Below, piece after piece: positions 7,932-18,805 of a stretch of DNA of 64,000 bases. The stretch spans positions 14,820 through 78,819 of the IMG/VR virus record IMGVR_UViG_3300044684_000224; one strand, 5' to 3'. This stretch comes from a virus. The notes under the pieces are model-generated. The model worked only from the letters and a program-made list of their open reading frames with translations, had not been told where the DNA came from and did no database searches. The translations under genes were made by a program, and so were the position numbers. Every line of letters starts with the position of its first letter. Position 1 is the first letter of the stretch.

Positions 7932-8777
7932 ATGGCTGGAAACAGGGGCACCGCACACGAACTCGGCGCTGCCCTGCGTGCACTCAGGAGTCGCGCCGGG
8001 CTGACCACGCGCGCACTCGGCGACAAGATCGACGCTAGTGCTACGAACGTCTCCCACTGGGAACGCGGCGAGCGGCTCATTGCCGAACGACGGCTCGTGC
8101 GCTTCCTCGACGCCGTAGATGCCACCCCTGACGAGAGGGAAGAGTTGCTCGGCCTCCGTCGCCACGCGGACGGCCCCGGCCAACTCGTAGCCGGCACGCC
8201 GAGCATCGGCGCCCAGTTGGCCCAACTGATCGAATACGAGCAGGTCGCGCGCAGGATCACCGCCGTCGCGCCGCTACTCGTTCCAGGTCTCCTTCAAACG
8301 GGCGACTACGCTCGCGCGACCCTGAAGCATCACCGTGACATCGACACGCGTGTGGCGCTACGCCTCGGGCGCCGCGACATCTTGACGCGCACCAGGGAGC
8401 CTGCCGAGTTGGTCGCACTGATCGACTCCGAGGTGCTGGTGCGGCCAGTCGTGCGCGGACAGCCGTCCGTCATGGCTGAGCAACTACGCCATCTGCTCAC
8501 GATGAGCGCCCGGAACAACATCACGATTCAGATCGTGCAGAGCGCGACGGTTGGTTGGACACCAATCCTGGCCGGACCGTTCATCCTGCTCGAATTCGCC
8601 ACCGCGACACCAGTCGTGCACTTGGAGCACCACAGTGCAAGTGCGTTCCTATGGGAGGAGGAGGACGTCCAGCGCTTCACGGCTGCGGCCGAGGAGATCC
8701 GTAACGCGGCGATGACCCTGGAGGATTCATCCAGGGTCATCGCCGAGATCGTCAATGGGATGGAGACGACAACATGA
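7932..8777 (+). CDS. XRE HTH regulator with DUF5753 (Scr1-like) domain
   Basis: N-terminal HTH (LRALRSRAGLT..VSHWERGER); LVPGLLQTGDYA and RLGRRDIL motifs of DUF5753. Confidence 0.9.
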   Translation: MAGNRGTAHELGAALRALRSRAGLTTRALGDKIDASATNVSHWERGERLIAERRLVRFLDAVDATPDEREELLGLRRHADGPGQLVAGTPSIGAQLAQLIEYEQVARRITAVAPLLVPGLLQTGDYARATLKHHRDIDTRVALRLGRRDILTRTREPAELVALIDSEVLVRPVVRGQPSVMAEQLRHLLTMSARNNITIQIVQSATVGWTPILAGPFILLEFATATPVVHLEHHSASAFLWEEEDVQRFTAAAEEIRNAAMTLEDSSRVIAEIVNGMETTT

Positions 8778-8959
8778 CGGTACCAACCAGAGCGTCGAGG
8801 TGGCGGAAATCGAGCCGCAGCGACGGACATGACACCTGCGTCGAGGTCCATCACGACCTGACCGCAGTCCGCGACAGCAAGAACACGGCCGGTCCGACCC
8901 TGCGCGGTGACGTGACCGCGCTCGTCGCGGCCATCAGGGCCGGCAAGATCGGCCGATAG
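8774..8959 (+). CDS. DUF397 domain protein (Scr2-like partner)
   Basis: WRKSSRS..CVEV..AVRDSKN..GPTL. Confidence 0.92.
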   Translation: MTVPTRASRWRKSSRSDGHDTCVEVHHDLTAVRDSKNTAGPTLRGDVTALVAAIRAGKIGR

Positions 8960-9003: not shown

Positions 9004-9528
9004 CTAGTTACTACCGATGGTCAAGCCGATACCAGCATGCGCCACGTCAGGCGTGAACACCTGCGTACCACGGTGCGATACCGTCACCGAATAGGACGCC
9101 TCGTTCAACGGGATGTCGGACACAGAGAACGGCAGTACACAACTGGGCAGGACAGTCCCCATATCCGGTACGCCCTCACCGAGTGCGCCAGTTCCCAGAA
9201 CCTGACCCTGTGGCCCGGTCACGACAACCGCAGTGCCCGGCACAAGATCCGAATACGGGCCTTCGCCCTGGCAGTTCGTGCTCGTCATCACCAAATCCGC
9301 AAGCCCGATAGTAGGCACCACTGTTAGCGAACCACGGAGCGTGAACGTCGCGGGCGCGCTCGGTGCAGGTTTCGACGTGAACGCACCGGACAGGGCAAGT
9401 GTCCCTATGATGATGACTGCGGCTAACGCTGCGCTGAGTACGCCGATTGCGATCCAGAGCGGGCGTCTCCTTGAGGGGAAACTCTGCGGCAGCGGCGACT
9501 GGGGTGGCGGTTCGAGCGGCATGGACAT
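9004..9528 (-). CDS. Membrane-anchored beta-rich protein
   Basis: Pro-rich N-terminus, one TM helix, two Cys in an Ig-like ectodomain. Confidence 0.65.
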   Translation of the reverse strand: MSMPLEPPPQSPLPQSFPSRRRPLWIAIGVLSAALAAVIIIGTLALSGAFTSKPAPSAPATFTLRGSLTVVPTIGLADLVMTSTNCQGEGPYSDLVPGTAVVVTGPQGQVLGTGALGEGVPDMGTVLPSCVLPFSVSDIPLNEASYSVTVSHRGTQVFTPDVAHAGIGLTIGSN

Positions 9529-12835: not shown

Positions 12836-13768
12836 ATGGTGAAAATCGTGTCCGACGAACTCTCTGACCTTCTGCGCAGCTTCCAGATCCACGTCCGTGC
12901 CGAGGGCCGCGCGCCGCGCACGGTGACCATCTACAGCCAGGCGGTCCAGTTCTTCGCCGCGTGGCTGACCGACCAGGGGCGCCCCGCCACGACAGACGAA
13001 CTGACCAAGGACAACATCCGGCGGTGGCTGGCCGAGTTGGGCGACACCAAGAAGCCCGGCACCGTACTCACCCGCCACATCGGCCTGCACAGGTTCGGCC
13101 GGTGGCTGGTGGCCGAGGAGATCCTGACCAAGCATCCGATGGACGGCCTGGAGCAGCCGCAGGTGCCCGCGTCGCCGGTGCCGGTGCTGTCGGATGAGCA
13201 ACTCGCCGCGTTGCTCAAGGCGTGTGCTGGGGCACGGTTCTACGACCGGCGCGACGAGGCGGTGATCCGGCTGCTGCTGGACTCCGGGCTGCGGGTGTCG
13301 GAGCTGTGCGGGCTGCCCCGGTGGAAGCCGGGCGAGGGGGGTGCCGCGGTGGGGATCGACGTGGCCGACCAGATGGGCATCGTGCTGGGTAAGGGCAGTA
13401 AGGCGCGGGCGTTCTACTTCGGTGCCCGCACGGCGCGGGCGCTGGATCGGTACCTGCGGGCGCGGGCCAAGCACCGGCACGCCGACAGTCACGCGCTGTT
13501 TCTGGGTGAGCGGGGTGCGCTGACCCCGGACGGTGTGCGGGAGATTCTGCGGGTGCGGGCAGAAACGGCCGGCATCGGGCATGTGCACCCGCATCAGCTC
13601 CGGCACACTCACGCCCATGACTTCCTGCTGCACGGAGGCCAGGAGCGCGACTTGAAGCGGCTGATGGGCTGGTCGTCGGACACGATGCTGGAGATCTACG
13701 GGGCGTCGGCCGCCGACGTGCGGGCGGCGTCGGCGGCGCGCCGGATGCGACGTGGCGATCGGGTGTGA
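12836..13768 (+). CDS. int: Tyrosine integrase/recombinase
   Basis: SAM-like N-terminus, LLDSGLRVSEL (Arg), GKGSK (Lys), HPHQLRH (HxxR), LMGW and EIY (catalytic Tyr). Confidence 0.93.
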   Translation: MVKIVSDELSDLLRSFQIHVRAEGRAPRTVTIYSQAVQFFAAWLTDQGRPATTDELTKDNIRRWLAELGDTKKPGTVLTRHIGLHRFGRWLVAEEILTKHPMDGLEQPQVPASPVPVLSDEQLAALLKACAGARFYDRRDEAVIRLLLDSGLRVSELCGLPRWKPGEGGAAVGIDVADQMGIVLGKGSKARAFYFGARTARALDRYLRARAKHRHADSHALFLGERGALTPDGVREILRVRAETAGIGHVHPHQLRHTHAHDFLLHGGQERDLKRLMGWSSDTMLEIYGASAADVRAASAARRMRRGDRV

Positions 13769-14188: not shown

Positions 14189-14578
14189 TCACATTGGTGT
14201 TGCGTCCCTTTTGATCTCGCACAGTTTCGCAACGATGGACTGCGCCTCGGACGGTGCCACGAGCACCGTCCGAGGCTTATTGGTTTCCTTCGGGCCGACG
14301 ATGCCGTGTTCTTCGAGTTCGTTCATCAACAGGTTGGCCATGCCGTAGCCACCGCGGAGCTTCCTTGCCAGCATGGCATGTGAACCGTACTGGGATGTTA
14401 TGACTAGCTCGGCTGCGAGTGCGATGAGAGGGGCTTCTGGTGGCGCGATCGTGGGCGTCCACCGTGCCCAGGGGTCGGCCTGCTGCCTGGATCGTCGTGG
14501 CGGTGGGGGCACGGTGGGCCGCTCGGCGATGCGGATGAGGGACGAGATGAGCGCGAGGATCGCTCTGGCCAGTTCCAT
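14189..14578 (-). CDS. Stand-alone FtsK gamma (KOPS-binding winged-helix) domain protein
   Basis: AAELVITSQYGSHAMLARKLRGGYGMANLLMNELEEHGIVGPKETNKPRTVLV matches the FtsK-gamma consensus; no motor domain. Confidence 0.85.
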   Translation of the reverse strand: MELARAILALISSLIRIAERPTVPPPPRRSRQQADPWARWTPTIAPPEAPLIALAAELVITSQYGSHAMLARKLRGGYGMANLLMNELEEHGIVGPKETNKPRTVLVAPSEAQSIVAKLCEIKRDATPM

Positions 14579-14586
14579 TGTGGCTC

Positions 14587-14991
14587 CTATCCGGTTCGCC
14601 GGCGCCGGAACGCGCGCTGTTCGTTGATCCAGTCCACGGCGTCGTTGAGGCGTTTCAGGGCCTCGTTCCGGCCGTGTTTGTCTTCCCAGAACTTGTAGAC
14701 ATCCATCAGTTCCCGCTGTTCCTCTGTGAGCGGCGGGGGCTGTTCTCGTTCCAGTGGCAGTGGGTCGCCGCCGGCAAGGACAGACTCGAACGAGCCGGGC
14801 CCTAGGCCGATCACCGGCTCCATCTGCGCGGCCTTGTGCGCCTGCGGCAGTCGTGTGCCGTCTTCGACGCCGGTCCAGGTGCCGCGGTCGACGCCCGCCT
14901 GCGCGGCCGCCGACCGGATGCTTAGTCCTCGCCGTGTGCGTTCTCGGCGCACTATCTCGGCGAGCCGTGCCCTGTGTCCCCCGACTGGCAT
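14587..14991 (-). CDS. Immunity repressor (CI-like XRE HTH)
   Basis: RERTRRGLSIRSAAAQAGVDRGTWTGVEDG; divergent from a Cro-like gene and near the integrase. Confidence 0.85.
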   Translation of the reverse strand: MPVGGHRARLAEIVRRERTRRGLSIRSAAAQAGVDRGTWTGVEDGTRLPQAHKAAQMEPVIGLGPGSFESVLAGGDPLPLEREQPPPLTEEQRELMDVYKFWEDKHGRNEALKRLNDAVDWINEQRAFRRRRTG

Positions 14992-15127: not shown

Positions 15128-15370
15128 ATGGGACCGAATCCGCCGAATGTCGCCATCGACGGTGACGAGCTGCGGACGAGACGCAAGTTCGCGGGCTACT
15201 CGCAGATCGAACTGGCCGAGCAGGCGGAGATCACCAACCGCTACGTCAGTGAGATCGAGCGCGGCAACCGAAAGTTCGTGAGCCCCGCCGTGTTCGTCCG
15301 TCTCTGTGACGCCCTCGACATCCGACCCGACCAGCGGTGGAAGCTCGTCCGTTCGGCGGTGGCGTCGTGA
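15128..15370 (+). CDS. Cro-like XRE HTH protein
   Basis: LRTRRKFAGYSQIELAEQAEITNRYVSEIERG. Confidence 0.85.
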   Translation: MGPNPPNVAIDGDELRTRRKFAGYSQIELAEQAEITNRYVSEIERGNRKFVSPAVFVRLCDALDIRPDQRWKLVRSAVAS

Positions 15371-15639: not shown

Positions 15640-15916
15640 ACGCCCGCACCACCCCGCCCGGCATGGTCGACATCCGGCGCCGCCCCGACGAGAGCGCCGA
15701 GCAGGCCCTGACCGGTGACCCGGACGACAAGAAGTCGAAGCCGGTGGAGCAGTCGAAGCCGGCCGGGAAGGACGGACCGAAGTGACCTCGCAGCCCAGTG
15801 ACGACGAGATCTTGGACGGTCTGGCCCGGAACCTCAACCAGGGTGCTGAGCGGGCCGCTGAGGACCGGGCCACGCAGCGTGCTGCTGATGCGGTGAAGAA
15901 AGGGGGAAAGTCGTGA
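15636..15916 (+). CDS. Two tiny coupled ORFs (15636-15785 and 15782-15916)
   Basis: ATGA/GTGA overlap chain linking the Cro operon to the Cas12 gene. Confidence 0.5.
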
Positions 15917-17589
15917 GCGATTTCGATCTCAACCAGGCGGTCGCCGACGTGCCCCATTCGACCCCCCTGGCCGACTACGCAACAGTCGTCTATCAGTACG
16001 GATGCCCGCACTGGGCGGACTTTGACGACATCGCGATGGAGCAACTGCGGTTGGCTCACAACCTCCGTAACCGTCTTGTCGAGATCGAACTGGCACACGA
16101 GGCGGCGCTGGCCGCTGCTCTCGCCGAGGACCCTTCCGTTAGTGCCGCGCAGGCCGCGCTGGCGGATGCCGACCAGGCAGTGAAGGACCTGGAGGAGCGT
16201 CTGCTGCGGGAGCGGGTGACGGATCGGTCTCGCGTGGCCCGAGTTGAGACGAAGGGGGCCATCAAGGCTGCGCGTGCCGCGCGGTCGGCTGCCAAGGTGG
16301 CGCTGAAGGCTGCGAAGGCGGCTGCGCGGGCGACACAGCGGGAACGTCGTGGAGAACTCCGGGACGCCCACATGGCCGCGCTGACCCAGGCGCGTGCCGC
16401 TGCGGTTGCTGACGGGCTGTTCTGGTCGACCGCGACCGATGTGTTGGACCACCATCGGGTCGCGGCGAAGGCAGTGATCCGTAAGCGTGTCGCTGGCCAG
16501 CCGGCCCGGTTGCGGTTTCACCGCTGGGATGGGTCGGGGACCTTGACCACGCAGGTGCAGTGGCAGACGGGAGGCCCGCTGCCGTCGCCCGCCGCGCTCG
16601 CCGCCGGGTGGGGTGGGTTGGCGACGTTGTCGCCGTGCGGCGACCCAGCGGTGCGTCCCCGGGGCGCCGAGCGGTTCGGCGAGCTGGCAATGCGGGTGCG
16701 CAGCGCCGACCATGGCGGGGATCACCGGCTGGTCGTCCCTGTGATCTTGCACCGGTGGATGCCGGCGAATGCGGAGATCAAGCGTATTCAGGTGAGTCGC
16801 CGTGCGGTCGCGGGCCAGCACCGGCTGTTCGTGTCGGTGACCTGCCGTGTGCCGGCGCCGGTGCCGTCCCGGTCGAGGACGGCTGTCGCGGTTGATGTGC
16901 AGTGGCGCGGTGTCGGTGACGGCAATGTGCTGGTGGCTCGGGTGGGTGTGTCTGGCGGTCCGGTTCCTGCGCCGCCGGATGCGGTGCGCGAGTTGTGTGT
17001 GTCGCGTCCGGGTGGTGTGGACATGCACGCCAGTGCCGAGTGGCGGGCGGTCCTGGCCCGTGGTGAGCGTATCCAGTCGGTGCGTGACGAGATGCTGGAC
17101 GACCTGCGGCCCCGGCTGGTGGAGGCGCTGGCCGACGCGGCTGTTGCCGACGCGGTGGGTGTCACGGGTGCCGTGGTGGCGCGGTGGCGGTCACCGGGTC
17201 GGTTTGCGCGGTTGGCGCGCGTGTGGCCGCAGGATCATGCGCTGGCGGTGCCGCTGGAGTTGTGGCGCGCGCGGGATCGGCACCTGTGGGAGTTCCAGTC
17301 GCATGAGCGCGCCCAGATTCTGGGTCGGCGTCGCGAGGTGTACCGCTGTTTCGCGGCGTGGCTGGCGGGGCACGCGTCCGTGATCGTGGTGTCCGATGTG
17401 GATATCGCTGAGGCGCGGCGGCGGCCGGATGTGTGCCAGGACGATCCGCATGGTGCGCGTGGCGCGCGGCGTCTGGTGCAGTTCGCGGCGCCGGGGGAGT
17501 TGCGGGCGGCGATCGTGGCCGCTGCGGCTCGTCGGGGTGTTGAGGTGTTGTTCGCGTCCCAGTCAGCGACGACTGAGGTGGCGGCATGA
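15913..17589 (+). CDS. cas12m: Cas12m-like (type V-M, formerly V-U1) effector, C-terminally truncated
   Basis: Motifs shared with MmCas12m as I recall it: EQLRLAHNLRNRLV, long REC coiled coil, GLFWSTATDVLDHH, RLRFHRWDGSGT, PVILHRWMPANA, RuvC-I AVAVDVQWR, VVARWRSPGRFARLA, RuvC-II VIVVSD, FAAPGELRAAIV; adjacent to 36-bp CRISPR repeats. Confidence 0.85.
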   Translation: MSDFDLNQAVADVPHSTPLADYATVVYQYGCPHWADFDDIAMEQLRLAHNLRNRLVEIELAHEAALAAALAEDPSVSAAQAALADADQAVKDLEERLLRERVTDRSRVARVETKGAIKAARAARSAAKVALKAAKAAARATQRERRGELRDAHMAALTQARAAAVADGLFWSTATDVLDHHRVAAKAVIRKRVAGQPARLRFHRWDGSGTLTTQVQWQTGGPLPSPAALAAGWGGLATLSPCGDPAVRPRGAERFGELAMRVRSADHGGDHRLVVPVILHRWMPANAEIKRIQVSRRAVAGQHRLFVSVTCRVPAPVPSRSRTAVAVDVQWRGVGDGNVLVARVGVSGGPVPAPPDAVRELCVSRPGGVDMHASAEWRAVLARGERIQSVRDEMLDDLRPRLVEALADAAVADAVGVTGAVVARWRSPGRFARLARVWPQDHALAVPLELWRARDRHLWEFQSHERAQILGRRREVYRCFAAWLAGHASVIVVSDVDIAEARRRPDVCQDDPHGARGARRLVQFAAPGELRAAIVAAAARRGVEVLFASQSATTEVAA

Positions 17590-17703
17590 ACACATATGCC
17601 AGCGCGAAGGCTTCGTATTCGCGACAGCGACCAACTGGTCAGCTGGACGGCGATTTCGGTGAGCGTGGTGGAAATGCCAGCGCGAAGGCCTCGTATTTGC
17701 GAC
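17590..17703 (+). CRISPR. Degenerate mini-array (2 repeats, 1 spacer of 42 nt)
   Basis: 5'-eroded repeat 17590-17625 (last 30 nt have 2 mismatches) and repeat 17668-17703 (2 mismatches to consensus). Confidence 0.85.
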
Positions 17704-17737
17704 CCGTCCATGAACTGACCCACAAGCAGGAGGCGAC

Positions 17738-18241
17738 ATGAGCGTGACAGTGACAGTGCCGGACGACCCGATCTCGCACCAACTGACCGAGTTGATCCGC
17801 AAGGGCGCCACCCCGGAGGACGCGGCCACGGCCGTGCTGGAGCCCTACCAGCCGACGCCTCTCGCAGGCGAGGCGTGGCGGGTGGTGCGGGATGCGGCGT
17901 TGAAGATTTCACGGCTGGCGGCCAGGGCTGCGGAGGACCGCGCGTTCCAGCCGGCGGGGGAGCGCACCGCGCGGGAGGCACGGTTGGCGATTCCCCGGGT
18001 CCGGTTCCGGGTGGGCGATGGCACCGAGGTGGAGTGGGGTCGGGCGACTGTGACGCAGCATCAGGCACGGATCGCGTGGCAGCGCACCCAGATGGATGCG
18101 ATCGCCGTGGATATCGACCGGCACACGGGGGCGGTCGATTTGATCGAACAGCACGGGGTTTCCTGCCTGGACGACATTCCCAACTGGCCGGATTTGCTTC
18201 CTGGCGTGTTGGACGGTGCGAGCGGCTCGGTGGCGGCCTAG
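17738..18241 (+). CDS. Hypothetical protein embedded between the two CRISPR array segments
   Basis: GGAGG RBS; 167 aa; GDGTEVEWGRATVTQH..HGVSCLDDI; function not recognised. Confidence 0.75.
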   Translation: MSVTVTVPDDPISHQLTELIRKGATPEDAATAVLEPYQPTPLAGEAWRVVRDAALKISRLAARAAEDRAFQPAGERTAREARLAIPRVRFRVGDGTEVEWGRATVTQHQARIAWQRTQMDAIAVDIDRHTGAVDLIEQHGVSCLDDIPNWPDLLPGVLDGASGSVAA

Positions 18242-18398
18242 GTACTGGGGACCGCTCGCATAGGTGGGTTGATCTGGAGGTTTAAGCGCGGTGGAGATCA
18301 TGGTGACACGGGATGCGGTGCTTGCCGAGGGGTGCTCCGGGGGACCGCTCGCGTTGATCTCCGCTGCCGCAGGTCAGGGTTGCCAGAAACAGGTAGCC

Positions 18399-18805
18399 GT
18401 GGAAATGCCAGCGCAAAGGCTTCGTATTTGCGACAACGTCATCCGCGCGCCCTTGACGCGGGTGTCCGCCACGGTGGAAATGCCAGCGCAAAGGCTTCGT
18501 ATTTGCGACTTGAACCCCGCCTCCATCATCTCGACTTGGACCTGCGCGTCGTGGAAATGCCAGCGCAAAGGCTTCGTATTTGCGACGGGTACGGAGTGGA
18601 ACAACTTGGCGAGTTCGTCGACCGGGTGGAAATGCCAGCGCAAAGGCTTCGTATTTGCGACGACCGGTTGGTGGCCGCAGTCATCAAAGGCTGGAGTGGA
18701 AATGCCAGCGCAAAGGCTTCGTATTTGCGACTCGTCGGTCACCGGTCGCCCTCCTGTCGCAAGTCGCCGGTGGAAACGCCTGCGCAAAGGCTTCGTATTT
18801 GCGAC
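18399..18805 (+). CRISPR. CRISPR array, 6 x 36-bp repeats GTGGAAATGCCAGCGCAAAGGCTTCGTATTTGCGAC, 5 spacers
   Basis: Repeats start at 18399, 18474, 18551, 18626, 18696 and 18770 (last has 2 mismatches); spacers 39, 41, 39, 34 and 38 nt; 3' hairpin CGCAAA/TTTGCG followed by AC. Confidence 0.98.

Follow-up and report, generated by a model that had tools for sequence, protein, structure and literature searches.

Does a Cas12m protein that ends before its zinc finger and RuvC-III still act on DNA, and if so, does it act alone? The question is raised by a cas12m gene in a 64,000-nucleotide stretch of viral DNA (hereafter the window), where the module belongs to the rightward-reading operon that follows the second HTH gene (15128-15370) of a temperate phage. 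A sequence-only reading of the locus had offered two answers, a smaller obligate DNA binder or a dead gene. The features that bear on the choice are as follows (window coordinates).

12836-13768: tyrosine integrase, a context gene
14587-14991, minus strand, and 15128-15370, plus strand: divergent pair of HTH genes
15913-17589, plus strand: cas12m, 558 aa; WED, REC1/REC2 and RuvC-I/II regions kept, zinc finger (TNB) and RuvC-III missing; active-site columns D328, S494 and none
17586-17741, plus strand: possible 51-codon ORF spanning a repeat-spacer-repeat unit, with GAGGTG upstream of its ATG
17590-17703, plus strand: repeat-spacer-repeat insert, made up of R1 (17590-17625, 5' end degenerate), a spacer (17626-17667) and R2 (17668-17703)
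17738-18241, plus strand: partner gene, 167 aa; N-terminal three-helix bundle, beta-hairpin and helical hairpin
18242-18398, plus strand: leader-like region with CGCTCGC...GCAGGTCA...GCGAGCC-type motifs
18399-18805, plus strand: main CRISPR array with six 36-nt repeats and five spacers of 34-41 nt
18435-18473, plus strand: leader-proximal spacer, target with 39/39 identity to the portal gene in phage IMGVR_UViG_3300044692_000039, TTG on the 5' side
18662-18695, plus strand: later spacer, matching 30/34 with the first 15 nt perfect, in a serine-integrase gene, 5' flank TTG

Two further observations concern the phage. Positions 1-127 of the record recur at 93174-93300, suggesting a circular assembly; IMG/VR lists the record as linear and 81% complete. 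A small FtsK gamma domain gene (14189-14578, minus strand) lies beside a repressor-like gene.

The window protein aligns with MmCas12m (8HIO) at an E value of 3.5e-59, residues 27-550 of the query matching 7-542 of the 596-residue chain. It shares about 30% identity with MmCas12m/GoCas12m-type proteins, and the REC2 sickle is present. The AlphaFold2 model (pLDDT 88.6, pTM 0.78) matched 8HHL, 8PM4 and 8HIO in Foldseek with TM scores of 0.70-0.73. The C-terminus lies 8 residues beyond the equivalent of MmCas12m residue 542, just past RuvC strand 5, the last RuvC strand. In MmCas12m, the zinc-finger ligands are H549, C552, C569 and C572 and the RuvC-III residue is D579 (PMC10442227); ending where it does, the window protein has no counterpart of any of them. 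The absence of zinc finger and RuvC-III, as first read from the sequence, thus stands, while the shortfall of "about 60 aa" comes down to about 46 aa in the alignment with MmCas12m. The two Cas12m4 structures 23VU and 23VW both run about 49-54 aa beyond the end point.

At the RuvC-I column, Asp328 of the window protein does align with His317 of MmCas12m, as had been noted. Little weight can be put on a "retained" Asp, since the column reads D in 6, R in 4, T in 2, I in 1 and Y in 1 of the 14 members of the truncated clade described below. The RuvC-II catalytic column (D485 in MmCas12m, canonically Glu) is occupied by Ser494; the Asp that had been assigned to it is the next residue. Across the truncated clade this column holds D, K, H, S, A or R. 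As both RuvC-I and RuvC-II residues vary, there is no selection for catalysis in the clade. The crRNA-contact residues H280 and R281 (H269 and R270 in MmCas12m) and many other arginines are kept throughout the clade, and three of the four Arg-pocket positions are basic in the window protein (K132, R146 and R192, by pairwise alignment to MmCas12m). Its guide- and PAM-reading parts are intact and it has no catalytic site; that it is functional at all we regard as very probable.

That the protein is truncated is confirmed, and the truncation extends through a whole clade. Its six nearest homologues, at 41-46% identity and 517-580 aa, stop at the same alignment column as the window Cas12m, and more distant ones still carry both zinc finger and DQD motif. 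In a tree of loci from metagenomes and genomes, among whose rows MmCas12m itself is not included, the window protein and 13 relatives form a single branch (SH-aLRT 99) nested among zinc-finger-bearing Cas12m, inside a branch of His/Asn-type, zinc-finger-bearing relatives (SH-aLRT 100). The contigs of the relatives carry true stop codons at the end of cas12m and contain CRISPR arrays. A frameshift or deletion artefact behind the short protein was ruled out, as the relatives stop at the same column. For the closest truncated pair, dN/dS was 0.23 for Cas12m and 0.19 for the partner, indicating purifying selection; these values come from rough Nei-Gojobori counting, the pairs being GC-rich and partly saturated, and pairs including the window gave 0.36-0.67. 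Scanning viral contigs for patterns drawn from the clade alignments yielded no further members.

A further truncated Cas12m (L018) is placed elsewhere in the tree, and constraining it to join the main clade was rejected (p-AU 0.03). There may therefore have been two origins of truncation, that of L018 being probably independent. A distant Cas12m-like lineage (L026, L029, L030 and L031) lacks the zinc-finger motif and keeps a tail of 68-76 residues, a separate loss; no partner was seen beside its members, of which only L026 has long flanks. The close relative at L004:2624-2801 has a repeat clearly unlike those of the rest of the clade, ending in CAAC. At two other loci, the sequence downstream of a zinc-finger-bearing cas12m contains no full array but a single repeat (L045) or 2-3 short degenerate units (L046).

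Does the shortened protein act alone? At every one of the 16 distinct truncated-type loci, a conserved partner gene (about 167 aa) lies directly 3' of cas12m. In the relatives, the cas12m stop overlaps or shortly precedes the partner gene, and the array comes next. In L018, the seventeenth truncated locus, a distant partner homologue (E 1e-9) is coupled upstream of cas12m. Ten distinct loci with zinc-finger-bearing Cas12m had no partner, at least 500 bp downstream being readable in seven of them. In the window, the two genes are separated by the repeat-spacer-repeat insert; none was seen between these genes in relatives. The sequence-only reading was right that a CRISPR repeat abuts the cas12m stop: an in-register repeat begins at 17590, its first 7 nt degenerate. 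The putative 51-codon ORF has an ATG overlapping the cas12m stop and a stop overlapping the partner ATG; with both gene ends overlapped, it would, if expressed, keep cas12m and the partner translationally coupled. An obligate DNA binder is supported, but not a stand-alone miniature, the partner gene being always coupled. Because of this coupling the two proteins, about 725 aa together, exceed MmCas12m in size.

The partner model (pLDDT 81) is helical with one hairpin. Fold searches of the PDB (Foldseek), BFVD and ESM Atlas, and a VIA wide search with a best Z of 5.4, gave no clear match. The window gene has no Pfam family, and neither Pfam nor PHROGs yielded a match that would hint at an activity; the best PHROGs match, the unnamed phrog_4604, was found for 4 of 142 members. 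Only G95, W100 and L144 are near-invariant among 142 homologues, and in the wide family QH..R and RHE motifs are common. The family comprises 1,092 representatives at E <= 0.001 (about 1,090 at 50% identity). No homologues were found in INPHARED phages, and a search for longer fused forms, which is weak evidence, found none. One subgroup (L010:7682-8290, L044 and the P0089-type) has an N-terminal CPxCG knuckle, with a weak Pfam Zn_ribbon_Brz match in 3 members. The partner was also considered as a detached C-terminus of Cas12m and rejected: the hhalign profile-profile probability was 0.1%, and the partner has neither the HCCC nor the DQD motif. A prediction of the complex of Cas12m and partner alone, with crRNA and DNA left out, gave a score of 0.01 and a mark of 0.32 and speaks neither for nor against an interaction. 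The partner tree is too poorly resolved to name a donor.

More was learned from the neighbours of distant partner homologues. Five such loci were read, one of which (L041) is cut off. In all four readable loci (L035, L038, L039 and L040), the homologue lies directly upstream of a Tas-like gene with a Nop domain and no nuclease. A profile of the four Tas-like proteins matched 9MTY, which we take to be the TasR structure, at E 1.9e-11, and TasH 21KL at E 0.003. In L038, 8 stem-loop box C/D TIGR units lie between the partner and tas genes, where the whole 64 kb of the window has a single one, put down to chance; one unit lies inside tas in L039, two were seen by eye in L035, and none was found in L040. 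With their Nop domain, missing nuclease and box C/D dual-spacer units (L040 excepted), these neighbours are TIGR-TasA systems, a link that rests on a small sample of 4 loci against about 1,090 family representatives. As its relatives adjoin this unrelated TIGR-Tas system, the partner may assist RNA-guided gene silencing in both.

What, then, are the guides directed against? The array repeats end in GAC and are predicted to form a hairpin; by eye, motifs of the type found in the leader-like region also precede the arrays of relatives. The portal and serine-integrase protospacers lie in the same temperate phage, IMGVR_UViG_3300044692_000039. A second set of targets came from Phytoactinopolyspora limicola HAJB-30, whose genome has its own cas12m-partner-array module (L043 array). 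One of its spacers matches 36/36 (L049:1031-1066) in a gene of the same genome, DUF3800-like by eye, with a Cas3-HD gene about 0.8 kb downstream of it; another matches 35/37 (L051:1501-1537) within the Cmr3-family member of a RAMP operon, again in the same genome. All four protospacers, two for the window array and two for the L043 array, are preceded by a 5' TTG PAM, which fixes the orientation of the array and is in line with TTN, the PAM of MmCas12m (PMC10442227). The TTG-flanked self-targets of P. limicola are, judged from sequence, candidates for RNA-guided anti-CRISPR silencing; they could also be tolerated merely because the prophage operon is silent. Exact-match scans of viral contigs found no targets for the three other spacers or the insert spacer, BLAST of the arrays against annotated phages and plasmids gave chance matches only, and the phage's own record contains no self-target. 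The record, at its estimated 81% completeness, has no cas1, so the spacers probably come from host machinery.

Some relatives carry repeats in unusual places. Three solo in-frame repeats lie within genes of one relative (L003:7952-7987, 8772-8807 and 9394-9429), one in a DNA methyltransferase gene and two within cas12m, paralleling the intragenic tigRNA units in TasA genes. The array at L006:2250-3206 has very uneven spacer lengths, some below 25 nt, and variable repeats; heterogeneity is seen in the arrays of L003 and L012 as well.

Judged by its sequence, fold, array and PAM, the window system is a member of type V-M. With MmCas12m/Cas12m2 (8HHL/8HIO) and GoCas12m (8PM4) it shares the fold, the REC2 sickle, the downstream array with a GAC-ended hairpin repeat, a TTN-type PAM, the want of an intact catalytic triad and of cas1 in the record. 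Unlike the characterised members, which have H-D-D, D-E-D or N-D-D triads and an HCCC zinc finger in a single-gene effector module, it reads D-S-none, is phage-borne and has its partner between effector and array. Without a TNB zinc finger or a three-residue RuvC site it is therefore a variant of type V-M rather than a typical member.

On balance we lean towards a phage-borne, two-gene, non-cutting type V-M silencer whose partner acts at the bound target, a reading in which we infer both the silencing, from characterised Cas12m proteins, and the role of the partner. The array would give rise to single crRNAs with repeat at the 5' and spacer at the 3' end. Guided by these, the shortened Cas12m would recognise a 5'-TTG PAM, form an R-loop and stay bound without cutting, and so may keep competing phages and host CRISPR loci from being transcribed or replicated. 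The Cas12m proteins described so far act by binding, which blocks transcription and replication, and their processing of pre-crRNA is independent of the RuvC site (PMC10442227, PMC11013384), so that loss of RuvC-III need not abolish processing. MmCas12m holds the non-target strand with H317 and D579 (PMC10442227). As it relies on these residues and on the RuvC-TNB groove, the truncated protein alone should bind less tightly, and the loss of this strand grip gives a helper its rationale. In the proposed course of events, the zinc finger and RuvC-III were lost and a coupled 167-aa partner may have been gained from a family that otherwise accompanies nuclease-less TIGR-TasA; at the bound target it could serve as an adaptor, or as an additional clamp on the DNA, strengthening or extending silencing. 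By analogy, it probably acts there since the other known neighbour of its family is a nuclease-less RNA-guided repressor. The role of the module would be phage competition and counter-defence. More tentatively, and with a good chance of being wrong, the family may be a portable helper of nuclease-less RNA-guided DNA binders, serving TIGR-TasA and taken up by Cas12m on two or more occasions; on each of them the zinc finger and RuvC-III would have been lost, and the helper would replace or extend their function.

Other explanations account for parts of the same evidence. The partner might work on guide RNA, maturing or stabilising crRNAs and stem-loop tigRNAs or aiding the extension and spread of arrays in Cas1-less loci. 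The phage record without cas1 would fit, as would the odd repeat sites (three in frame in L003 and the window insert), the uneven L006 spacers and the QH..R and RHE motifs of the wide family. Against this, the histidines of these motifs vary, some of them being lost in one Cas12m-linked subclade, full-length Cas12m needs no other protein to process pre-crRNA (PMC11013384), and most arrays are regular with PAM-flanked protospacers, as expected from host Cas1-Cas2 in trans; we consider such a role unlikely, if worth keeping in mind. Cas12m could also be a self-sufficient binder and the partner a co-transcribed regulator or independent cargo captured once. The main clade has a single origin, so that 16/16 counts as one event, dead TnpBs without RuvC-III are known (PMC10691335), and the N-terminal bundle of the partner is weakly HTH-like (Z 4.2-4.4, within noise). 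Yet coupling has been kept among proteins only 41-46% identical, in the window even across the insert, L018 probably adds a second origin, and the family's other known neighbour is likewise a nuclease-less RNA-guided binder, so we hold mere hitch-hiking to be rather improbable.

A target-activated toxic or DNA-damaging partner, with Cas12m as the sensor in abortive infection or killing, seems very unlikely. The Cas3 added as effector to a Cas12m (PMC10910872) is a precedent, and the window spacers do target a competing phage, but no invariant catalytic-looking residues occur among the 142 partner homologues, fold searches returned no nuclease or toxin fold, and the genome of a lysogen itself contains a PAM-flanked target that its spacer matches perfectly. 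That cas12m is decaying, the dead gene of the sequence-only reading, is hardly credible. A deletion might leave a degenerate first repeat abutting the stop, as seen here, but relatives that have no repeat at the junction stop at this very column. Proteins of 41-46% identity share the truncation and have true stops, and purifying selection (dN/dS about 0.23), a confident fold and PAM-flanked phage matches, one of them perfect and recent, all argue against decay.

Shortened RNA-guided binders with a fixed partner have precedents. Sigma-factor-linked dead TnpB/Cas12f and flagellin-linked dead TnpB share the loss of zinc finger and/or RuvC-III and a fixed partner gene, and in the sigma-linked proteins the zinc finger and RuvC-III are lost where the partner docks (PMC10691335). 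Those systems combine a sigma factor or FlgL/CsrA with an omega-type RNA, whereas the window module has a multi-spacer array against mobile elements, no replacement C-terminal HTH and a partner without fold match, and spacers of its Phytoactinopolyspora relative hit host CRISPR loci. The Cas12m-Cas3 hybrid also joins Cas12m to an extra protein, in that case a helicase-nuclease, and the accessible part of its report describes no truncation (PMC10910872).

With TIGR-TasA, the module shares the principle of a nuclease-less RNA-guided DNA binder: TasA represses transcription (bioRxiv 10.64898/2026.09.09.750476) and acts as a phage repressor, and TasParB, its operon partner (Faure et al., PMC12045711), is a precedent for a TasA partner. 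The partner homologues coupled upstream of tasA genes with stem-loop units are a further point in common. The effectors differ, that of the window being an unrelated Cas12, and no ParB match to the partner turned up in Pfam (142 members) or among the structures returned by the fold searches. The portions of the TIGR papers open to search (PMC12045711; bioRxiv 10.64898/2026.09.09.750476) make no mention of the partner family. More widely, the truncated clade, its partner and the sharing with TIGR-TasA are absent from the searchable text of open papers, including the 2025 classification, and the module is a two-gene form of type V-M not found in that literature.

A large uncharacterised family thus links CRISPR-Cas12m to TIGR-Tas, and it bears on how non-cutting binders interfere strongly and how guides are processed in two unrelated systems. 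The spacers suggest a biological role in competition among temperate phages and silencing of host CRISPR. If the proposal is true, one accessory protein is common to two unrelated RNA-guided systems and is used by phages against rivals and host CRISPR-Cas, and a helper that strengthens repression would be useful for compact CRISPRi tools. In one of the TIGR loci (L038:4001-6034), the cassette of partner, TIGR array and tasA lies on the opposite strand between phage capsid and prohead-protease genes.
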